The translations under genes were made by a program, and so were the position numbers. Below, one piece after another: positions 1,456 through 57,095 of a stretch of DNA of 64,000 nt. How positions within the stretch are numbered: position 1 is the first letter of the stretch; each line of letters starts with the position of its first letter. Source of the stretch: Escherichia coli (lineage in GTDB: Bacteria; Pseudomonadota; Gammaproteobacteria; Enterobacterales; Enterobacteriaceae); NCBI RefSeq assembly GCF_001677475.2, contig NZ_CP015229.1; one strand, 5' to 3'. The notes under the pieces are model-generated. The model was not told the DNA's origin and made no database searches. It saw only the letters and a list, made by a program, of their open reading frames with translations.

Positions 1456-3095
1456 TCACTCACTCTCCTGCAAGTTTGCAGAATATCATCCGCAGCCTGG
1501 TAATACTTCGTCTCAACGCCAGTTAATCCCAATAGCGTGGAGAATAAATTGTCTTGTGAATAGTGTTGCGTTTGCGCCTGTTTTTGCAGGCAGTTCTGGT
1601 CAACCTGATACCGTTTTTGATAATCCTCCGACAGCCACAGCAGCATTGGCACCTGTTTTTGGCTATCCGGGGCGATGGCATAAGGCAGACCGTGCAGATA
1701 GATGCCATTTTCACCTAACGATTCACCGTGGTCAGAAAGATAAACCAGGCTGGTGGTAAATTTATCCTGATGTTCTTTCAGCAGATTAATCGCTTTATCA
1801 ACAATATAGTCGACGTAAACCAGCGTGTTGTCGTAAGTGTTCACCAGTTGCTCTTTGGTACAGGTCTGGATCTCATTGGTGTCGCAGGTTGGGGTAAATT
1901 TCCTGAACTGCGGCGGATAGCGGTTGTAATAGGTCGGACCGTGGCTGCCGATGGTGTGTAAGACAATCACGCCATCACCCTGCAGGTTATTGATGTACTC
2001 TTCCAGCCCGTGGAACAGCACTTCGTCATAGCATTCGCCGTTGATGCACTGACCAGGCAGATTCAGCGCGGTGACGTTCTGGTGAGGCACGCGGTCGCAG
2101 GCACCTTTACAGCCACCATCGTTGTCATTCCACAGCACGTTGATGCCCGCTCGCTGAATGATATCCAGCACGCCTTCCTGGTGCTGTGCCAGCTCTTCTT
2201 TGTAATGCTCACGCGGCATATCCGAGAACATACACGGTACTGAAACTGCCGTTGCCGTGCCGCAAGATGCGGTATTAGGGAAATAGACCACGTTATCTTT
2301 CGCCAATCGCGGGTTAGTTTCACGCGGGTAGCCGTTGAGGGAGAAGTTCTCCGCCCGCGAGGTTTCGCCGACAATCAGGATGGTCAAATTTTTACGTTTT
2401 TCGTTCTGCATTAACGGGTTGCGGTGCGCGTCTTCACCAATTCGCACCAGCGGCAGATTTGCCAGTCGCTGATGGGAGTACCATGACCAGCTGGCAACAA
2501 TGCTGTTAGAGGGGCTTAAGGACTTCACCAGCTCTTTGTTGTTGCGGAACAACGAGGCGTAGTCTTTATAAAACAGTGCGGCGACCAGCAAAATCAGCAG
2601 TACAGAAACCAGAATATTGGCTCCACGGAAAAGAACACTGCGCAGACGCGAGGTGGCAGGTTTGATTTTTATCCAGCAGGCAATCAGCGCAGCAAGCACG
2701 CCGCTGAATCCCAGCGTTAATAACATTTGCGGTGTCATCAGCGCATAACTTTCTGCCGGAGTGGTATCAATAATATTGGCAATCATCGAGCGGTCGATGA
2801 CGATGCCGTAAGTCATTATGAAATATTGTGCAGCCGCGCCAACCAGAATAAACAGGCAGGCCAGCGGTCGATTAAGCCATAAGAAAGAGCTTAGTGTCAG
2901 GACAATATTAATCACGCTGAAGGCGACGACCGGCATCGACAAGAAAACCAGTACGTTATGCAGCGAGTCCAGCGGCAGCGCCTGCAACACCTGTTTAAAA
3001 AAGGCAATATTCAGGCAGATAGAGATATAAAAAGCGGCCAACAATAGCCAGGCGAGTAAATTCAAAGAGGGTCTTTTTAGTAGGCGCTTCAACAT
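1452..3095 (-). CDS. eptA: Lipid A phosphoethanolamine transferase EptA/PmrC, 547 aa
   Basis: ORF 1452..3140 recognised as EptA; the recognised N-terminus [14 protein letters not shown] begins at the internal ATG 3095..3093, so the track ORF is 15 codons over-extended. Confidence 0.9.
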
Positions 3096-3141: not shown

Positions 3142-3158
3142 ATTAAGCCAACCTTAAG
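3142..3158 (-). promoter_or_regulatory. Putative BasR/PmrA box (CTTAAG-N5-CTTAAT on the minus strand) upstream of eptA, embedded in a 14-bp-arm perfect palindrome (3145..3174)
   Basis: Reverse complement of 3142..3158 reads CTTAAGGTTGGCTTAAT, matching the PmrA direct-repeat consensus YTTAAK-N5-YTTAAK; lies about 47 bp upstream of the eptA ATG. Confidence 0.5.
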
Positions 3159-3198
3159 TTCTTAAGGTTGGCTTTTATGTGTGCTGGATTAAGGGGAA

Positions 3199-4536
3199 TT
3201 AATCTTTGCTTATTGGTGCATCTAAGGGATACGGGTTTTTATGCAGCCTGTTGTAATTCAGCGCATACATGGCGGTGATGACCATCAGGGTGACAAATGA
3301 CCACATAACCTCTTTCGCCCCGGACCCCACAACGGCCCAAATGCAGTAGAGGAAGGCAATGGTAGTAACAGCCAGATATGCCGGGCGTGCTTTACCAAAG
3401 TGACCGTGGCCGAGCAGCAGTAACGCCGCACAGGTGTAAAGATATGGCACCAGTGTAAAGATGACCGAGACGGAAGAAACCAGACCGAACTCTTTGGTCG
3501 CGTTTGGTGAAATGCTGCTGAGCTGGAAGATGGTCATCAAAATACCGACGATAATCAGCCCCGCCACTGGCGTACCCGCTTTATTTACACGGGCAAAAAT
3601 CGGTGGGAACAGTCCGTCATCGGCAGCGGCTTTCGCCGTTTGACCCGCCAGCAATGTCCAGCCGCCCAGTGAACCTAAGCAACCCGCAGCTGCGCAGAAG
3701 GAAACAATGGCCCCGGCGGTGTCACCCAACGCCATCCGTGCGGCATCACCGAATGGCGAGGCAGAAACGCGCAGTGCGGCATTAGGGATCATCCCCATAA
3801 TCGCGGTGGTGGAGAGTACATAGCAAACGGCGGCAATCAATACCCCACCAATGGTGGCGATAGGGACATTGCGTTTCGGGTTTTTCACCACACCTGCGGC
3901 AACGGAGGCACTTTCCACACCGATGAACGACCACAGCGTAACGTTAAGGGTACTTTGAATTGCACCGAAGGTGCCCAGGCCGCTGACGTTCCATGCCGCC
4001 ATATAGGTTTCACCACGGAACCAGAACCAGCCAAATACGGCAATCCCGACGATGGGGATCAGCGCCAGCACGGTGGCAACGGCCTGCACGCGGGTGATCA
4101 TTTTCGGACCGACAATGTTCAGCAGGACGAAGATCCACAGCACCACGACGCAGGTGATGGTTAATACCAGTGGATCTTTCAGAATCGGGAAGAAGTAACT
4201 TAAATATCCTACGCCAATGACCACCATGGCGATATTGCCGATCCAGCAGGCCAGCCAGTAGAGGACGTTGGTTTGATAACCGAGAAACGGGCCAAAGCAG
4301 CGGCGGGCGTAAGCGTAAGAACCACCAGGACTTGGGTCGAGGAACGACATTTTGGCGTATACCATCGAGAGCCCCAGCGCACCGATAATCGTCACCAACC
4401 ATCCATAAATGGCAATCCCGCCAGTGGAGGCCAGGTTTGCAGGTAACAGAAAAACACCTGACCCCATAATATTCCCCGACACCATCAGGGTGACGGGGAT
4501 TAAGCCCACTTTGTGAGCATCAGCATCCGAAGACAT
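3199..4536 (-). CDS. adiC: Arginine:agmatine antiporter AdiC, 445 aa
   Basis: Protein [36 protein letters not shown]... recognised as AdiC (APC family). Confidence 0.95.
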
Positions 4537-20586: not shown

Positions 20587-20704
20587 GAGCTGTAGTTGAG
20601 TGGACCCGCTGGTTATCTTGAAACGAAGCGTCTCTCCTCAAAACTGGATTTGCGGAACGACGAACGAAGCAGTCGCCTGACTGCTTCGTTCATTAAAGTG
20701 AAAT

Positions 20705-23932: not shown

Positions 23933-23961
23933 CAAAAAAGGGAAGTGGCAAGCCACTTCCC
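23933..23961 (-). terminator. Putative rho-independent terminator downstream of cadA
   Basis: Hairpin GGGAAGTGG-CAAG-CCACTTCCC (23940..23961), followed on the minus strand by six T. Confidence 0.65.
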
Positions 23962-23974
23962 TTGTACGAGCTAA

Positions 23975-30011: not shown

Positions 30012-30047
30012 CTGAAACGAAAAACGGACCTCCGTGGAGGTCCGTTT
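30012..30047 (-). terminator. Rho-independent terminator of pheU
   Basis: 12-bp perfect stem AAACGGACCTCC/GGAGGTCCGTTT (30022..30047) starting 9 nt after the tRNA CCA end, followed on the minus strand by TTTTCGTTT. Confidence 0.7.
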
Positions 30048-34342: not shown

Positions 34343-34378
34343 AGAAAAAAGGCACGTCATCTGACGTGCCTTCTTTAT
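34343..34378 (-). terminator. Rho-independent terminator downstream of aspA
   Basis: Hairpin GGCACGTCA-TCT-GACGTGCC (34351..34370) flanked by an A6 run upstream and a T-run downstream; on the minus strand the stem is followed by TTTTTT. Confidence 0.7.
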
Positions 34379-47710: not shown

Positions 47711-49511
47711 TCGCCTTCTCCTTCTTATTGGCTGCTTCCGCCTTATCGGCTGCATCCGCTTCGCCACCGTAAACACGTTTAGCTGGCGGCAGCGTAGTAA
47801 TCTTCACGTCGCTGTACTCCAGGCGAGTCGTGCCATCAGCATCGCGGAAGGCGAGGGTGTGTTTGAGGAAGTTGACGTCGTCACGCTCGGTGCAACCTTC
47901 GTCCAGACGCTGGTGTGCGCCGCGGGACTCTTTACGTGCCATTGCGGAGTGCGCCATACATTCAGCAACGTTCAGACCGTGGCCCAGTTCAATGGTGTAG
48001 AGCAGGTCGGTGTTGAACACGCTGGAGGTGTCGGTGATGCGCACGCGCTTGAAGCGTTCCTGCAGCTCAGCCAGCTTGTCGATGGTTTTCTGCATCAGTT
48101 CCGGCGTACGGTAGATACCGCAACCTTCTTCCATAGCCAGGCCCATTTCGTCGCGGATCTTCGCCCAGTTTTCGCCGCCATCCTGGTTAACCAGATCTTT
48201 CAGACGTTGTTCAACGCCAGCTGCCTGCGCTTCAATTGCCGCTTCGTTGCCATTACCGGCAGTTGCTGCACGCTCTGTCGCTTGTTCACCGGCCAGACGG
48301 CCGAAGACCACCAGTTCCGCCAGGGAGTTAGAACCCAGACGGTTTGCACCGTGCAGACCAACAGAGGAACATTCACCCACGGCGAACAGACCTTTAATGC
48401 GGGTTTCACAGTTCTGATCGGTTTCGATACCGCCCATGGTGTAGTGTGCGGTCGGACGTACCGGAATCGGTTCTTTAACCGGATCGACGCCAACGTACGC
48501 TTTCGCCAGTTCGCAGATGAACGGCAGACGTTCATGCAGTTTTTTCTCGCCGAGGTGACGCAGGTCGAGATAAACCACATCACCACGCGGTGTGGAGATG
48601 GTGTTGCCTTTACGCCATTCGTGCCAGAAGGCCTGAGAAACTTTGTCGCGTGGACCCAGTTCCATATACTTGTTTTTCGGCTCGCCCAGCGGAGTTTCCG
48701 GGCCCATGCCGTAATCTTGCAGATAACGGTAGCCATTTTTGTTGACCAGAATACCGCCTTCACCACGGCAGCCTTCGGTCATCAGGATACCGGAACCTGG
48801 CAGACCGGTTGGGTGATACTGAACGAATTCCATGTCACGCAGCGGAACGCCGTGGCTTAGCGCCATACCCATACCGTCACCGGTAACGATGCCGCCATTG
48901 GTATTGTAACGATAAACGCGACCCGCACCGCCGGTAGCCATAACGACCGCGTTAGCACGGATCTGCACCAGCGTGCCTTCCATCATGTTCATTGCTACCA
49001 GGCCGCGAACATGACCATCATCAACCAGAATATCCAGCACGAAATGTTCGTCAAAACGCTGGATCTGCGGGAATTGCAGAGAGGTCTGGAACAGCGTGTG
49101 CAGCATATGGAAGCCGGTCTTATCGGCGGCGAACCAGGTACGCTCGATTTTCATGCCGCCGAAGCGACGTACGTTGACGCTACCATCCGGGCGACGGCTC
49201 CATGGGCATCCCCACAGTTCCAGTTGGGTCATTTCGGTGGGGCAGTGGTGGACGAAATAATCCACGACATCCTGCTCACACAACCAGTCGCCACCCGCGA
49301 CTGTATCGTGAAAGTGATATTCGAAGCTGTCATGATCCTGCGCGACAGCGGCGGAGCCCCCTTCTGCAGCAACGGTATGGCTACGCATCGGGTATACTTT
49401 TGAGATTAGTGCGATTTTTGCATTTGGATTTGCCTGCGCGGCAGCAATTGCAGCACGTAATCCCGCGCCACCGGCGCCTACAATGGCAAGATCGGCTTGA
49501 AAGGTTTGCAC
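47703..49511 (-). CDS. frdA: Fumarate reductase flavoprotein subunit FrdA, 602 aa
   Basis: Protein [38 protein letters not shown]... recognised as FrdA; start codon is GTG. Confidence 0.95.
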
Positions 49512-49643
49512 GACATTCCTCCAGATTGTTTTTATCCCACAGCCCCGTACTTCAGGGTAAGTGCCTGAAAGTTACGGTCTGCGAACGCTATTCCACTGCT
49601 CCTTTATAGGTACAACAGTATAGTCTGATGGATAAGTCTGAAA

Positions 49644-49657
49644 TTTGACGAGATCGA
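49644..49657 (-). promoter_or_regulatory. Putative FNR binding site of the frdA promoter
   Basis: Minus strand reads TCGATCTCGTCAAA, resembling the FNR consensus TTGAT-N4-ATCAA, about 135 bp upstream of the frdA GTG. Confidence 0.5.
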
Positions 49658-49835
49658 TTTTTTTAGTGCGCAAGAGGGCTAAATTATCACTGAAGATGAT
49701 TAATTTAATTACTAAACCATCAGATCGTGCTTTTTTTAGTCACTGCCCACCGTTGTTTGATTCCTGCGTAAAATTTGTCTCGCCGTCGCGTTGCGAGTAG
49801 ACTTCGTGCCCTTGTCAAAAACTGGAGATTTAACT

Positions 49836-50813
49836 ATGAGCGAAACGGCATCCTGGCAGCCGAGCGCATCCATTCCTAACTTATTAAAACGCGCGGCGAT
49901 TATGGCGGAGATCCGTCGTTTCTTTGCCGATCGTGGAGTGCTGGAGGTGGAGACGCCTTGTATGAGCCAGGCGACGGTAACCGATATTCATTTGGTCCCG
50001 TTTGAGACACGTTTCGTTGGCCCCGGGCATTCGCAGGGGATGAATCTCTGGTTAATGACCAGCCCGGAATACCATATGAAACGCCTGCTGGTTGCCGGTT
50101 GTGGGCCGGTATTCCAGCTGTGCCGCAGCTTCCGTAATGAAGAGATGGGGCGTTATCACAACCCTGAGTTCACTATGCTGGAGTGGTATCGACCGCACTA
50201 TGATATGTACCGGTTGATGAACGAGGTGGACGATCTCTTACAACAGGTGCTGGACTGCCCGGCAGCAGAAAGCCTTTCTTATCAACAAGCTTTCTTGCGT
50301 TATCTGGAAATTGACCCACTCTCTGCCGACAAAACGCAACTGCGGGAAGTGGCAGCGAAACTGGATTTGAGCAATGTTGCTGATACCGAAGAAGACCGCG
50401 ACACGTTGCTACAATTGCTGTTTACCTTTGGCGTAGAGCCAAATATTGGTAAAGAAAAACCGACCTTTGTGTACCACTTTCCAGCCAGCCAGGCATCACT
50501 GGCGCAAATCAGTACCGAAGATCATCGGGTCGCTGAACGCTTTGAGGTTTATTATAAAGGTATTGAGCTGGCGAATGGTTTCCATGAATTGACGGATGCC
50601 CGTGAGCAGCAACAACGCTTTGAACAAGATAACCGTAAGCGCGCGGCGCGCGGTTTGCCGCAGCACCCCATTGACCAGAATCTGATTGAAGCCTTGAAAG
50701 TCGGTATGCCTGACTGTTCCGGCGTGGCATTAGGTGTTGATCGTCTGGTGATGTTGGCGCTGGGCGCGGAGACACTGGCTGAAGTCATCGCCTTTAGCGT
50801 TGACCGGGCATAA
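49836..50813 (+). CDS. epmA: EF-P-lysine lysyltransferase EpmA (PoxA/GenX; LysRS paralogue), 325 aa
   Basis: ORF 49791..50813 recognised as EpmA; the recognised N-terminus [27 protein letters not shown] starts at ATG 49836. Confidence 0.92.
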
Positions 50814-51031
50814 TTCTGAAAAATTACTGAATTAACAGCGAAGAATGGCGTGATAAGCGCCATTCTGTAGCATATGTTTTCATTTTTCTGTTAAAGGCCA
50901 CAATTTAAGACTGGATATTTGATATCATCCAGGTATCAATTCTGTATTGGTTTTTACGCTGCCCGCTCAATGTTGGGCAGTGCAGTTCAGTGGGCGCGTT
51001 TTATACACGCGCTGAAATGAAGGATGGTTTC

Positions 51032-52534
51032 ATGCCTCACACGATAAAAAAGATGAGTCTGATAGGACTCATATTGATGATCTTTACTTCCGTATTTGGA
51101 TTTGCCAATAGCCCATCGGCTTATTACTTAATGGGTTATAGTGCGATTCCCTTTTATATATTTTCTGCATTGTTATTCTTTATTCCATTCGCCTTAATGA
51201 TGGCTGAAATGGGCGCTGCGTATCGCAAAGAAGAAGGAGGTATCTATTCCTGGATGAATAATAGTGTCGGACCACGTTTTGCCTTCATTGGTACGTTTAT
51301 GTGGTTTTCCTCTTATATCATCTGGATGGTGAGCACCTCCGCTAAAGTTTGGGTACCGTTCTCAACATTTCTCTACGGTAGCGACATGACCCAGCACTGG
51401 CGTATTGCCGGACTGGAACCTACGCAGGTGGTTGGTCTGCTGGCAGTGGCATGGATGATTCTGGTCACCGTCGTTGCTTCAAAAGGGATTAATAAAATTG
51501 CCCGCATTACTGCGGTGGGCGGTATTGCAGTAATGTGCCTGAATTTAGTATTACTGTTAGTAAGCATTACTATTTTGTTATTAAATGGTGGGCATTTCGC
51601 GCAGGATATTAATTTCCTGACATCACCGAACCCAGGATATCAATCCGGTCTGGCGATGCTATCGTTTGTGGTATTTGCCATTTTTGCCTATGGCGGAATT
51701 GAAGCGGTTGGTGGTCTGGTCGATAAAACGGAAAATCCAGAAAAGAACTTTGCCAAAGGTATTGTTTTTGCCGCTATTGTTATTTCAATCGGTTATTCGC
51801 TGGCAATATTTTTATGGGGCGTCAGCACAAACTGGCAGCAGGTATTAAGTAATGGTTCCGTTAACCTCGGCAATATTACCTATGTGCTGATGAAGAGCCT
51901 CGGGATGACGCTGGGTAACGCACTGCATTTGTCACCTGAAGCGTCATTGTCGCTGGGCGTATGGTTTGCGCGTATTACCGGACTTTCGATGTTCCTCGCT
52001 TATACCGGTGCGTTCTTTACGCTTTGCTATTCACCGCTGAAAGCCATCATCCAGGGGACGCCGAAAGCGTTGTGGCCGGAACCGATGACGCGCCTGAATG
52101 CGATGGGGATGCCGTCTATCGCCATGTGGATGCAGTGCGGGTTGGTTACTGTCTTCATCCTGCTGGTTTCGTTTGGTGGCGGTACCGCATCGGCGTTCTT
52201 TAACAAGCTGACGCTGATGGCGAACGTGTCTATGACGCTTCCTTACCTGTTCCTCGCGCTGGCTTTCCCATTCTTTAAAGCACGTCAGGATCTCGACAGA
52301 CCATTTGTGATTTTCAAAACGCGTATGTCGGCAATGATTGCGACGGTGGTTGTCGTTCTGGTGGTGACATTTGCGAACATCTTCACCATCATTCAGCCTG
52401 TGGTTGAAGCCGGAGACTGGGACAGCACATTGTGGATGATTGGCGGCCCTGTCTTCTTCTCGCTGTTAGCGATGGCGATATACCAGAACTATTGCAGTCG
52501 CATGGCGAATAAACCTGAGTTAGCTCTCGACTGA
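51032..52534 (+). CDS. yjeM: Putative APC-superfamily transporter YjeM, about 500 aa
   Basis: ORF 50990..52534 is a polytopic membrane protein recognised as YjeM; start assigned to ATG 51032 (AAGGATGG SD); in-frame alternatives are GTG 50990 and ATG 51053. Confidence 0.8.
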   Translation: MPHTIKKMSLIGLILMIFTSVFGFANSPSAYYLMGYSAIPFYIFSALLFFIPFALMMAEMGAAYRKEEGGIYSWMNNSVGPRFAFIGTFMWFSSYIIWMVSTSAKVWVPFSTFLYGSDMTQHWRIAGLEPTQVVGLLAVAWMILVTVVASKGINKIARITAVGGIAVMCLNLVLLLVSITILLLNGGHFAQDINFLTSPNPGYQSGLAMLSFVVFAIFAYGGIEAVGGLVDKTENPEKNFAKGIVFAAIVISIGYSLAIFLWGVSTNWQQVLSNGSVNLGNITYVLMKSLGMTLGNALHLSPEASLSLGVWFARITGLSMFLAYTGAFFTLCYSPLKAIIQGTPKALWPEPMTRLNAMGMPSIAMWMQCGLVTVFILLVSFGGGTASAFFNKLTLMANVSMTLPYLFLALAFPFFKARQDLDRPFVIFKTRMSAMIATVVVVLVVTFANIFTIIQPVVEAGDWDSTLWMIGGPVFFSLLAMAIYQNYCSRMANKPELALD

Positions 52535-52684
52535 TCATATGAAATCCTGCAACTCATCGTCTCTCCGGCGATGAGTTGTCAGGAAGTAATGCGTATGGAT
52601 GATACTCTCCAGGGCCGGTGATAACTGAAGATGATGTTAAGCTGCTAAATGAGCCACGTTGACATCATTTGGCAGCTTCATGCA

Positions 52685-55600
52685 TTACAAACTTCCCGCC
52701 TGACGACCTTTGCCCGCAGACGTCAGCGTTCTCCCCGTTTGCTTACCGTTGAGGCTTTCCAGACGCATCTGGAAGGGCGGGAATGGCATATCGATACCGT
52801 GGGCGTGGAAGCCTGCCAGAATCAGCTGGTGGATCTCATGGCGTAGCGGCATACGGTGACCCATCTCAGCGGCGTAAATACGCAGCTCGAAAATCTGAAT
52901 CCCCTGTTGCAGATCCACCAGGAAGACTTCCGGTGCCGGGTTGTCGATCACCAGCGAGCAGCGACGCGCTGCGGTGAGCAGGATTTCCGTCACTTCTTCA
53001 CTGTTGGCATCGGCAGGAGCCGGAATCGTCAATACCACGCGCGTGACCGAGTCAGAGAGCGACCAGTTGATAAACTGCTCGGTAATAAACGCCTTGTTCG
53101 GCACGATAATTTCTTTGCGGTCCCAGTCGCTGATGGTGGTGGCGCGGGTGTTAATTTTTGTCACGCTACCGGTGAGATCGCGGATCGTCACCGTATCGCC
53201 AATGCGAATCGGTTTTTCGAACAGGATGATCAGGCCAGAGATAAAGTTGGCGAAAATTTCCTGCAAACCAAAACCGAGACCAACACCGAGCGCGGCGACC
53301 AGCCACTGCAATTTCGACCACTCAATACCAATCATTGAGAAGCCGACCAGCCCGCCAATCAGCATCAGCAGATATTTGGTGATGGTGGTGATGGCGTAAC
53401 CCGTACCCGGCGTTAAATCCAGGTGCTGCAAAATCGCCAGTTCCAGCAGCGCGGGCAGGTTGCGCACCAGCTGCGTGGTGATGATAAATACCAGAATGGC
53501 AATCAGCACCGCACCGAGGGTAATCGGCTCCAGACTTTCCACGCCCTGTACCGTGGAAGTGACATCCCACAGCGAAATATTTTCGAGGAAGCCGAAAGCG
53601 GAATGGATTTCTGACCACAGCACAATGACCGAAAGCAGGGCGATCAACATCAAAATTGAGCGCACCAGCCGCAAGGATTGCGCACTGATGGCATCGAGAT
53701 CGACTTCGCTTTCATCGACTTCAATTGCCCCTTCCGGGCTACTGTGATGATGCGCTTCCTCTTCGCCACGTGCACGTTGCGCTAACATCTCTGCCCGGCG
53801 ATGCTTCGCCCGGTCAAACGCCAGCCTGCGGCGTTGGATCAGCATCCAGCGGCGGATAACGTGATAAACCACCAGTAGCAGGAACCAGATGGCAACCGAG
53901 GTTTCAAGCCTCGCTAACAGTGCCTGCGCCGTTGCCAGATAACCCACCGCCGACGCCAGAATAGCAACCAGTGGCGCGCCAATCATCATGTTCCACAGCA
54001 TATGGTTGGTAATGTTGTCGCCGCTACCCTCTTTGTTGAGATACAGCGGGATACCGGCCTTTTTCAGGCTGAGGGTGACCACCGCCAGCGCACCGCAAAT
54101 GAGGATAAAGCAAAGCCGTCCCAGCGAACCGGAAAATTCGCGGTCGTCGAGATTATCGAACATCATCAGCGCCATAATCAGCGGCACAATAAGCCCGATG
54201 CTCATCAGGTAGTAGCGCATCCCACGGGAAACCCGTTCGCGTGGCCAACCAAAATGAGCGATAAACAAGCCGTTCGGGCGGGCAAAGGTGGCGCAAATCA
54301 TCACTACCCACAGCAGCGGCACGGTGGCTGTTACGCCATCACCAATCGCGACCGCCAGCGGATAAGGCCACGCCTCGCGCAAGCCGTAACCCAGCGTCAT
54401 CCACAGCACTGGCAGCGGTGACGCGACGAGAATCGACCAGAAAAGAGTGCGTAACGTCAGCCAGAAGTGATCCTGAGTCACTTTGCCGACTTTCGCCGCC
54501 GAACGTTCAAGAAAACGGGTGAAATATCGGCGCGAGTAAATACTGCAACCGACCAGAATCAACGCGCCAAACAGCGGCAAAATCGTCTCTTTGCTGGTCA
54601 GCATCATCACACTGGCTTTGCCCAACTGACTGAAGGTGTCCAGCGAAATGAGACGACGCAGATCCTGGGCGATTTCCAGCGGCCAGGCGATGGTCATCGG
54701 ACGTACGTCAGAGGTCCAGAACAGATAGCGGTGCGTCGCTTCATTCACCTCTTTCAGCGCATCCTCCAGTTGCCCGTTGGAGACTTTCAGCTTGGTCAGT
54801 TCCAGTAGTAGCGTGTCGCCACCCTGCAACAATGAGTTCAGCAACTCACGCTGAGTGCGTAGCTGTGCTTCGAGAATACGGTTTTGCTCGGCAGTCAGCG
54901 GCTGACCGTCGGCCTGATGAATTTGCCTTAGCTGCGGCTGTTTATTAAGCAGATCCTCATAACGTAACCGTTGCACACGCAACTGCGCCATTTCGGTATC
55001 AAGCTGTTGTGGTTTTGGCATTTCCGGCAGCCGTGCCACCTGCGCCCGCAACGCTTCGCCGAGCAGATTGGACGATCCCAGCCATTGCGACTGTTCACGC
55101 AGCGTATTCAACGCCTGCCGGACCTGTAACGTCTGGCTGGCAGCCTGACGCTGTTGCGAGGCAACGAGATCCATCCGCTGCGCCTGTTGATTCAGCGCTG
55201 CCGATAGTTCGCGGTTTATTTTGAATTGCGCGACGATATCTTTCGGCAAATCGGCACTGTTTTCTGCCAGCAATTCGGTACTTTCCAGCGCCCGCTCCGC
55301 CTCAAGCTGACGTTGGCTGTTCAACTGATTACGTAAGGTCTGCAAATACGCATCCAGTTGCTGGCTCTCTTTTTCCGCCAGCTCTGAGCGTAAGCGCGCT
55401 AATTCCTGGCGGTTATTGGCGGACAGCTGCGCCAGTTCCAGTTCATCGACGAGCGCTTTCAGGCGTGCGGAGTCAGACTGCAACGCGAAATTTTGTGCCT
55501 GATTGAGCGGGGAATTGCCGGTAAGCGTCCCCAGGCGGCGCTCGATTTCATTTAACTGACGGCGGGCATCGGTTTGCTGTTGCGGCAGTTGATTCAGCGA

Positions 55601-56008
55601 ATCGGCAATCTCGCGGGCGCGTTCCTGCTCTTGCTGGGCCTGACGGCTTTTATCCAGCAACTGGCTGCTGACCTGGAGAATTTCCTGATTCAGCGCGTCG
55701 GTAGACATTCCCGGTGACACGCTGCGCGGCTCGTCACGCATGTTGTTTAATTGCGCGCGCAGAGTAGCGGAGAGTTTCGGATAATTATCAATGACTTCTT
55801 GATATTGCTTGATGCGCTCAAGGGAACCTTTCCGTTCCTCAAGCGCATTTAAGGCAGACTGGAGCGCCTCTACGACTTCCGGTTGCGCGGGTTTCGCCGC
55901 TTTTGCCTGCTCCAGTTCTTGTGAGATTTGTTTGCTATCGGGGGCCGTCGCGGCGTACGCCCCCCAACTGAGGCACCAGGCCATCAGAAAAGTGATAATC
56001 AGGCGCAC
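52685..56008 (-). CDS. mscM: Miniconductance mechanosensitive channel MscM (YjeP), 1107 aa
   Basis: Protein MRLIITFLMAWCLSWGAYAATAPDSKQISQELEQAKAAKPAQ... with a long coiled-coil periplasmic domain and MscS-like C-terminus. Confidence 0.92.
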   Translation of the reverse strand: MRLIITFLMAWCLSWGAYAATAPDSKQISQELEQAKAAKPAQPEVVEALQSALNALEERKGSLERIKQYQEVIDNYPKLSATLRAQLNNMRDEPRSVSPGMSTDALNQEILQVSSQLLDKSRQAQQEQERAREIADSLNQLPQQQTDARRQLNEIERRLGTLTGNSPLNQAQNFALQSDSARLKALVDELELAQLSANNRQELARLRSELAEKESQQLDAYLQTLRNQLNSQRQLEAERALESTELLAENSADLPKDIVAQFKINRELSAALNQQAQRMDLVASQQRQAASQTLQVRQALNTLREQSQWLGSSNLLGEALRAQVARLPEMPKPQQLDTEMAQLRVQRLRYEDLLNKQPQLRQIHQADGQPLTAEQNRILEAQLRTQRELLNSLLQGGDTLLLELTKLKVSNGQLEDALKEVNEATHRYLFWTSDVRPMTIAWPLEIAQDLRRLISLDTFSQLGKASVMMLTSKETILPLFGALILVGCSIYSRRYFTRFLERSAAKVGKVTQDHFWLTLRTLFWSILVASPLPVLWMTLGYGLREAWPYPLAVAIGDGVTATVPLLWVVMICATFARPNGLFIAHFGWPRERVSRGMRYYLMSIGLIVPLIMALMMFDNLDDREFSGSLGRLCFILICGALAVVTLSLKKAGIPLYLNKEGSGDNITNHMLWNMMIGAPLVAILASAVGYLATAQALLARLETSVAIWFLLLVVYHVIRRWMLIQRRRLAFDRAKHRRAEMLAQRARGEEEAHHHSSPEGAIEVDESEVDLDAISAQSLRLVRSILMLIALLSVIVLWSEIHSAFGFLENISLWDVTSTVQGVESLEPITLGAVLIAILVFIITTQLVRNLPALLELAILQHLDLTPGTGYAITTITKYLLMLIGGLVGFSMIGIEWSKLQWLVAALGVGLGFGLQEIFANFISGLIILFEKPIRIGDTVTIRDLTGSVTKINTRATTISDWDRKEIIVPNKAFITEQFINWSLSDSVTRVVLTIPAPADANSEEVTEILLTAARRCSLVIDNPAPEVFLVDLQQGIQIFELRIYAAEMGHRMPLRHEIHQLILAGFHAHGIDMPFPPFQMRLESLNGKQTGRTLTSAGKGRQAGSL

Positions 56009-56029
56009 GTCAGCGTTTCCTTTGATGGA

Positions 56030-56998
56030 TTAGACCTGGTCTTTTTTGTCGTCAACCAATGGGCTGGCGTCGTGTTCTGCTTCGATCTCTTCAGCAGGAA
56101 GCGGGGCGGGTTCAGCGTCTGGCGTAACAAAGGTTTCGGTAGATACTGCCAGCGGCTGGCCAATTTTCGTGACAGACAGGCTTTCCAGTTGCTCAACCAG
56201 ATTCACTTTACCCGGTGCAAACAGGTTGATAACGGTGGAACCGAGTTTAAAGCGACCCATTTCCTGGCCTTTCAGCAGTGCCACAGAACCGTCGTTTTCC
56301 CCGGCAGGCCAGGTCCAGCGCTTGATGATACCTTCGCGCGGCGGCGTAATGGTGCCCGCCCAGACCGTCTCAATGCTGCCTACAATCGTCGCCCCGACCA
56401 GAATCTGCGCCATTGGGCCAAATTCGGTATCGAACAGGCAGATCACGCGTTCGTTACGGGCAAACAGATTCGGCACGTTCTGAGCGGTGAGATGGTTAAC
56501 GGAAAAGAGATCGCCCGGCACGTAGATCATCTCACGCAGAATACCGTTGCACGGCATGTGTACGCGGTGGTAGTCACGCGGGGAGAGGTAAGTGGTCACA
56601 AACGTACCGTTGCGGAACAGGTCCGCCATCAGATAGTTGCCTGCCAGCAGGGCTTCGAGGCTGTAGTTGTGGCCTTTGGCTTGCAGGATTTTATCTTCTT
56701 CGATTTTACCCAACTGGCTGATAACGCCATCGGCAGGCATAACCAGTACATTCGGATCGGTATCGATTGGGCGTACTTCGTCACGCAGCGGACGGACAAA
56801 GAATTCGTTAAAGGTGCGGTAGCTGGCGGTATCCGGCTTTTGCGCCTCTTTCATGTCGACCTTGTAGTATTTAACGAACAGATCGATAACCAGTTTTGTC
56901 AGCCATCCTGCCCGCTTGCTTGCGCCCCAACCCGCCAGGCGAGTAAGCCATAGTTTCGGCAGAATGTACTGTAGCGAAAGTTTAAATGAATTTAACAA
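56030..56998 (-). CDS. psd: Phosphatidylserine decarboxylase proenzyme Psd, 322 aa
   Basis: Protein [33 protein letters not shown]... recognised as Psd, including the LGST self-cleavage motif. Confidence 0.95.
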
Positions 56999-57095
56999 GG
57001 TAGCCTCCAGGCCATTGTTTTGTCGTTCCTGATCCGGCCTACATGCCGGATCCTGAAAAAAAAGGGGACGATTCTAACGACGGTTAGCTTAATTG

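Follow-up and report, generated by a model that had tools for sequence, protein, structure and literature searches.

The window, i.e. the whole stretch of 64,000 nucleotides of Escherichia coli DNA that was analysed, carries the convergent genes yjeM and mscM, and the features of their junction are listed in Table 1. The preliminary description put 150 bp between the two stops, and the same distance was obtained from the ORF ends, with the yjeM stop (TGA) at 52532-52534, the minus-strand mscM stop at 52685-52687 and the gap at 52535-52684. Both gene names follow the RefSeq annotation of E. coli genomes whose junction is 100% identical, and the start of yjeM was deduced from the annotated length of 1,503 nt. 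The yjeM ORF matched the Pfam families AA_permease_2 and AA_permease. Short ORFs touching the gap (52649-52846 on the plus strand and 52389-52538 on the minus strand) were set aside as unsupported frames that overlap mscM and yjeM or lie antisense to them.

Table 1. Features at the yjeM-mscM junction (positions in the window)
Feature	Position	Strand	Description
yjeM	51032..52534	+	Amino-acid permease family transporter, 500 aa; 'type I' 3' end
HP1	52545..52584	+	Hairpin 10 nt after the yjeM stop; core a perfect palindrome (52550-52578); no U-tract on either strand
yjeN remnant	52595..52634	+	ATG at 52595, 8 codons, TGA at 52619-52621; frameshifted; between HP1 and HP2
HP2	52639..52678		Hairpin with 14-nt arms and 12-nt loop, ending 6 nt from the mscM stop
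mscM	52685..56008	-	Miniconductance mechanosensitive channel, 1107 aa; from the ORF and the annotation in matching genomes

The product of yjeM ends in ...SRMANKPELALD in the window (the 'type I' allele), and its final ~13 codons differ from those of K-12 (...SRVAKNPQWAVE). These codons exist in two deeply diverged versions (window 52495-52534 versus 1762-1800 of locus L001), the first found in the window, EC13 and E. albertii and the second in K-12 and SE15, while the remainder of yjeM is ~98% identical between them. The 3' end of yjeM seems to contain a recombination boundary. The best identity for window positions 49000-57000 among 5,426 complete E. coli genomes was 98.7%, although the 190-bp junction was 100% identical in many; the window may belong to a lineage that this collection lacks, such as Shigella or an E. 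coli lineage not yet sampled. In laboratory evolution under amoxicillin, ampC amplicons of K-12 ended in yjeM more often than in any other gene (38% of boundaries), and the authors described these boundaries as having no fixed hotspot (PMC12625342); a search of that paper for a hairpin or palindrome found no mention of either.

The perfect 10-bp stem CAACTCATCG-N9-CGATGAGTTG noted in the preliminary description was confirmed as the core of HP1, with arms at 52550-52559 and 52569-52578 that are 10/10 complementary and 9 nt apart. HP1 folded into ~17 pairs with -27.2 kcal/mol on the plus strand and -23.6 kcal/mol on the minus strand, a folding z of about -5 (-5.1) against shuffles, and its core has a moderate G+C content (5 of 10 pairs). 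In a Markov-1 simulation that counted perfect 10-bp inverted repeats with a loop of 3-12 nt, 0.65 such repeats were expected by chance per 64 kb, or ~0.0015 per 150 bp. Since six such loci were observed in the window, HP1 belongs to a non-random yet common class of feature. Five further perfect palindromes with a stem of at least 10 bp and a short loop were located at 3145-3174, 20662-20691, 23938-23963, 30022-30047 and 34349-34372, and these are probably gene-end hairpins or terminators.

HP2 was overlooked in the preliminary description. Its arms (52639-52652 and 52665-52678) are 13/14 complementary and formed a 14-pair stem in the folds of both strands. The outer arms AAGCTGC...GCAGCTT and the motif CA(T/C)GCATTA are common to E. 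albertii (locus L007) and E. coli ML35 (locus L098), and the adjoining CATGCATTA matches the hairpin between yjeO and mscM in these two. Judged by its sequence, HP2 thus derives from the hairpin that separates yjeO from mscM in alleles of the E. albertii and ML35 type.

Allele classes at the junction in E. coli

The preliminary description stated that some reference genomes carry one or two additional small ORFs near this junction, which the window lacks, and suggested a strain-variable point. K-12 MG1655 does carry two genes in the gap, yjeN (b4157) and yjeO (b4158). At the same locus, the window has lost both genes but still contains the start region of yjeN and the hairpins on either side. 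The proposed comparison with other E. coli genomes returned several allele classes rather than one junction identical in all strains.

In the survey of 5,426 complete E. coli genomes, 5,425 contained the locus, and alleles were classed by a match to the 190-bp compact probe or to the K-12 yjeN-yjeO probe over at least 80% of its length. The compact junction was found in 2,394 genomes (~44%), with 100% identity in O157:H7 and many others and 99.5% in strain B. Both yjeN and yjeO were present in 2,152 genomes (~40%), ~1,880 of them K-12-like and ~270 of a second type (e.g., EC13) with the yjeM 3' end and HP1 as in the window. The remaining class, a partial match to the K-12 probe, comprised ~880 genomes (~16%), mostly yjeO-only as in SE15, plus rarer forms. 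An additional insert between yjeO and mscM was observed in 45 genomes (~1%), among them GF3-3 (locus L004, 3775-6000) and CREC-544 (locus L087, 3433-5658); it consists of a frameshifted IS630-family transposase, a gene for a hypothetical protein of 237 aa and, overlapping the latter by 1 nt, a second YjeO-family (DUF2645) gene.

The 190-bp probe matched a median of one place per genome, as did the K-12 allele probe, and with one copy per genome the identity of a dispersed repeat, MITE or REP/BIME was ruled out. HP1 and HP2 resemble REP/BIME elements as intergenic palindromes after a stop codon, and REP-like hairpins occupy the same position in Salmonella and Citrobacter youngae. However, HP1 and HP2 occur once per genome, and their sequence does not match the REP-like GCCGGATAAG...CATCCGGC of Salmonella and C. 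youngae.

The yjeN remnant and the missing genes

A remnant of yjeN, also overlooked in the preliminary description, lies between the two hairpins. It reads ATG followed by GAT GAT ACT CTC CAG GGC CGG TGA, a one-base loss having left an 8-codon stub, and yjeN-like sequence (GTGATAACTGAAGATGA) extends to ~52634, the deletion junction, after which HP2 begins. Aligned with the yjeN 5' ends of K-12, EC13, E. albertii and ML35, the stub showed 29-31 matches in 42 aligned columns with a frame loss of 1 nt. An intact YjeN-homologous ORF of ~104 codons is absent from the gap, where the 8 codons run into an in-frame TGA and the homology ends at ~52634. The 3' tail of the gap (52625-52684) found no source in local alignments to the K-12, EC13 and GF3-3 loci; its source was matched only in E. 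albertii and in ML35, an E. coli strain with a full-length allele and both hairpin types.

Because the yjeN stub is present, the compact allele is a deletion derivative and not an ancestral empty site, and YjeN homologues in E. coli, E. albertii and Salmonella indicate that yjeN predates the compact allele. The ancestral Escherichia layout would have been yjeM - HP1 - yjeN - yjeO - HP2 - mscM, as kept in E. albertii and E. coli ML35. A single deletion of ~580 bp in an ML35-like allele, from about codon 14 of yjeN through the yjeO stop and with endpoints apparently at short GATGA/GGTGA matches, would then have left HP1, the decaying start of yjeN and HP2. A separate and smaller loss within yjeN, in a K-12-type background, gave rise to the yjeO-only allele, and since this deletion is distinct from the compact one, several independent indels have occurred at the junction.

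The compact alleles of distant strains (B, Nissle, A32, ST2747 and others) are nearly invariant, with five variable sites in 190 bp, three of them in the yjeN stub, one in HP1 and none in HP2, which did not vary across the eight compact alleles compared. The divergence of the stub from all known yjeN sequences is ~30%, and compact alleles differ from each other by less than 2%.

The reverse order of events, with an ancestral compact junction into which yjeN and yjeO were inserted in other strains, would fit the yjeM-mscM junctions of 35-93 bp without a cassette in several other genera and the patchy distribution of DUF2645 cassettes over Enterobacterales. However, an insertion could not leave a yjeN start codon and ~40 nt of frameshifted yjeN-like sequence in an empty site; moreover, each of the two hairpins has its counterpart at one end of the E. 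albertii/ML35 cassette, and Salmonella carries YjeN at the same locus. We therefore consider this order of events very unlikely.

Stem-loops at the 3' ends of yjeM and mscM

The preliminary description took the palindrome for a likely bidirectional terminator, and this part of it was not supported. An intrinsic terminator was defined as a stable G+C-rich stem-loop followed by a U-tract of at least 5 U in 8 nt that starts 0-2 nt past the stem. HP1 (-27.2 kcal/mol) and HP2 (14-pair stem) are both stable stem-loops. However, the bases that follow the HP1 stem are UCAGGAAGUAAUG on the plus strand and CAGGAUUUCAUAUG on the minus strand, with tails UCAGGAAG and CAGGAUUU, respectively, and contain no U-tract. 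After HP2 there was likewise no U-tract on either strand, the tails being CAUGCAUU (plus) and AACAUCAU (minus). A terminator scan of both strands from 52000 to 53200 returned zero terminator-like sites, and an upstream A-tract combined with a downstream U-tract around one shared hairpin was not found at 52535-52600. Each convergent gene has its own hairpin, so 'one bidirectional terminator' misdescribes the anatomy; the layout of two hairpins is inherited from three units, yjeM, yjeNO and mscM. A scan with Rfam 15 (51500-53500, E up to 10) gave three chance-level matches (E 4.7-9.3), none of them within 52535-52684, and a promoter scan gave two weak promoter-like matches, one over the right arm of HP1.

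Downstream of the hairpins, stretches with more C than G were found on the plus strand at 52639-52770 (C/G 1.6-1.9) and on the minus strand at 52671-52560 (up to 2.1), a compositional measure that is a weak indicator of rut sites. In K-12, a bicyclomycin-sensitive Rho termination region was mapped at 4386122(+) (Adams et al., PMC7815308, supplementary file 2). This position follows the yjeO stop by 104 nt and lies antisense to mscM, in sequence also found in the window. According to the same study, plus-strand termination past yjeO in K-12 is Rho-dependent, and another Rho region lies inside mscM (PMC7815308). With bicyclomycin, DirectRNA-seq coverage of the 800 nt preceding MG1655 4386122 (+) rose from 53 to 369 reads (PMC7815308, supplementary file 2); this stretch corresponds to yjeN-yjeO and the yjeM 3' end, and Rho acting further upstream may itself keep its expression low. 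The K-12 supplements of Adams et al. (curated Term-seq 3' ends and Rho regions) list no 3' end for yjeM, yjeN or yjeO or at the mscM stop, perhaps due to low expression, and no 3' ends for the junction were found in the TERMITe supplements. An RNA-seq transcript of K-12 was assembled over part of yjeM, yjeN and yjeO, across the HP1 homologue, with a warning by the authors that it is possibly an artefact (PMC4168707).

Rho-dependent E. coli transcripts have been found to end just after stable stem-loops without U-rich tails, which protect against PNPase and RNase II and have rut sites immediately downstream (Dar & Sorek 2018, PMC6061677). HP1 and HP2 resemble these stem-loops (PMC6061677) in being stable, close to a stop codon and free of a U-rich tail, in the C-rich, G-poor sequence that follows, and in the Rho region that was mapped shortly beyond the corresponding locus of K-12. 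They differ in that transcripts were found to end just after the stem-loops of Dar & Sorek, whereas HP1 and HP2 are known here from sequence and folding, and in that HP1 of full-length alleles lies inside a possible yjeM-yjeNO co-transcript and not at an operon end.

The lack of a U-tract, the C-rich and G-poor stretches, the K-12 Rho region and the precedent in PMC6061677 together argue for a protective role. HP1 would be the stem-loop following yjeM, and HP2 the one following mscM and formerly also yjeO. Most likely, neither would itself terminate RNA polymerase; they would probably mark transcript 3' ends and protect them from 3'-5' exonucleases, while Rho would end transcription slightly beyond the hairpins, and the arrangement would limit convergent read-through into the opposite gene. 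HP1 and HP2 are thus most likely protective or insulating 3'-end stem-loops with Rho-dependent termination, as judged from K-12 data, where the allele differs. We regard the combined reading, a deletion scar together with HP1 and HP2 as 3'-end stem-loops with Rho termination, as probable.

Could HP1 nevertheless act as an intrinsic (Rho-independent) terminator in both directions, for yjeM as well as mscM? Like known elements of this type, it is a palindrome between convergent stops that is stable when folded on either strand, and the minus strand has a short UUU 5 nt past the stem. The known elements, however, have a flanking pair of an A-tract and a U-tract, which HP1 lacks; no U-tract adjoins its stem on either strand, and the scan returned no terminator-like site. 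Further, the hairpin adjoining mscM is HP2 and not HP1, full-length alleles place HP1 upstream of yjeN and more than 650 bp from mscM, and the yjeM-yjeN-yjeO transcript of K-12 was assembled across the homologous hairpin. We find this reading quite unlikely. For contrast, the junction of Citrobacter sp. R56 has a U-tailed hairpin (GCCGGGC...GCCCGGCATTTTT).

Another possibility is that the palindromes are kept symmetric by mutation (template switching or quasi-palindrome correction), have no function and lie in neutral leftover DNA, and the sequence comparison of HP1 bears on it from both sides. HP1 is shared at 100% identity by E. coli EC13, ML35 and E. albertii; over the stretch that starts at the yjeM stop and includes HP1, the compact allele equals EC13 and differs by one base from E. 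albertii and ML35. The hairpin at this position is diverged in K-12, SE15 and CREC-544, where it reads GCCCTATCGTC-loop-GACGATAGGGC. In an alignment of seven sequences, 13 pairs of HP1 could be drawn, of which 6 were invariant, 3 had changed on one side but were still paired, and 4 had changed on both sides (A-U to G-C, A-U to C-G, U-A to C-G and C-G to U-A). Paired cells made up 98.7% of this alignment, compared with 23-56% when the partners were slid by 1-3 columns. The sole HP1 variant among compact alleles, G>A at 52568 in ST2747, turns a U.G pair into U-A.

HP1 looks selected because four pair changes against K-12 are fully compensatory, which is suggestive of selection, with effectively one comparison of two deep allele classes. 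Also suggestive, and in the same direction, is that HP1 is conserved at 100% while the neighbouring yjeN stub is only ~70% like any yjeN. On the other hand, template switching between the arms could equally keep the HP1 palindrome symmetric without selection. HP1 (type I versus type II) and HP2 (window versus E. albertii) both differ symmetrically on their two arms, a pattern that fits arm-to-arm copying as well as selection, and no transcript 3' ends have been mapped at the junction. Against a purely mutational explanation are the identity of HP1 over E. coli, ML35 and E. albertii beside a decaying stub, the occurrence of a hairpin of some kind after yjeM in every genus examined, and the documented protective role of U-less gene-end stem-loops in E. 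coli (PMC6061677). We consider such an explanation unlikely. The hairpin directly after yjeM was stable in all yjeM-bearing genera examined and differed in kind: Citrobacter sp. R56 and C. werkmanii have a U-tailed terminator there, C. youngae and Salmonella REP-like elements, and Escherichia HP1.

Cassettes beside mscM in Enterobacterales

YjeO is an inner-membrane protein whose sole Pfam match is DUF2645. NCBIfam and PADLOC returned nothing for the lost genes, YjeN had no match in Pfam either, and a sequence search of the PDB gave chance-level hits only. Its AlphaFold2 model was all-helical with a mean pLDDT of 68.5, and Foldseek found no match for it in the PDB at E 0.001 or better. YjeN homologues were found in Escherichia and Salmonella only.

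Eighty Enterobacterales loci (L008-L085) were retrieved with the C-terminal 250 aa of MscM. In most genera, epmA and mscM were directly convergent and 40-250 bp apart, and yjeM, an accessory gene of the locus, was present only in Escherichia, Citrobacter, Pseudocitrobacter, some Enterobacter and a few others. A two-gene cassette adjoined the mscM stop in scattered genera, even without yjeM; it encodes a DUF2645 (YjeO-family) membrane protein preceded by YjeN in Escherichia or by an unrelated 237-aa protein (hyp237), YjeN and hyp237 being unrelated by BLASTP. The 237-aa protein matched the phage family phrog_11932 (E 9e-25) and had relatives at the same site in Citrobacter, Enterobacter, Kosakonia and Pseudocitrobacter.

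Several loci had other arrangements. Salmonella enterica (L095) had yjeM-yjeN-mscM without yjeO, with REP-like palindromes (GCCGGATAAGACCC...GCATCCGGC) between yjeM and yjeN (2994-3057) and between yjeN and mscM (3379-3514); the start of the 125-aa Salmonella YjeN is probably called 19 codons too far upstream. Three Rahnella loci (L050, L053 and L054) contained ~3.1 kb of other DNA between epmA and mscM. The 250-bp yjeM-mscM junction of Superficieibacter electus (L042, 5730-5979) contained a repeat array of three tandem units of ~70 nt (AAAACGTTACGCCGCGG...GCACAGGCCTACATTTTCTG).

In view of these cassettes, HP1 and HP2 might be sites at which a mobile two-gene cassette, made up of a variable partner and a DUF2645 gene, recombines or ends, and the window might show an emptied site. 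YjeN with YjeO, or hyp237 with a YjeO-family protein, indeed lies next to the mscM stop in several genera, also where yjeM is missing; tandem stacking with an IS630 remnant occurs, and hyp237 matches a phage protein family. However, the flanking hairpins of different genera share no sequence, which argues for generic gene-end hairpins rather than specific recombination sites. Part of yjeN is retained in the compact allele, so excision would have been imprecise, the yjeO-only allele came from a different, internal deletion, and no integrase or recombinase was found near the junction in the E. coli loci examined, nor anything by PADLOC. This explanation of the hairpins is thus highly improbable. 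In a broader form, the site next to the mscM stop would be a long-lived cassette hot spot of Enterobacteriaceae, where modules are gained, stacked and lost and of which the window shows the emptied state. Such modules would pair a variable soluble protein (YjeN or the 237-aa protein) with a translationally coupled DUF2645 membrane protein. We consider this broader reading unlikely.

The compact junction is a common, ordinary polymorphism of the E. coli pan-genome plus an ordinary 3'-end structure, and its novelty is nil to slight. It accounts for the difference in annotation between K-12, with yjeN and yjeO, and O157:H7, B and Nissle, without them. With both genes missing from ~44% of complete E. 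coli genomes, yjeN and yjeO are dispensable in nature. The junction is also a clean case from nature in which a deletion left the hairpins on either side intact and the stub between them decayed, which is modest evidence for selection on U-less stem-loops of this kind. Should the modules beside mscM serve, for example, in phage-related exclusion or as an envelope-stress system, nearly half of E. coli would carry a natural knockout in the form of the compact allele.
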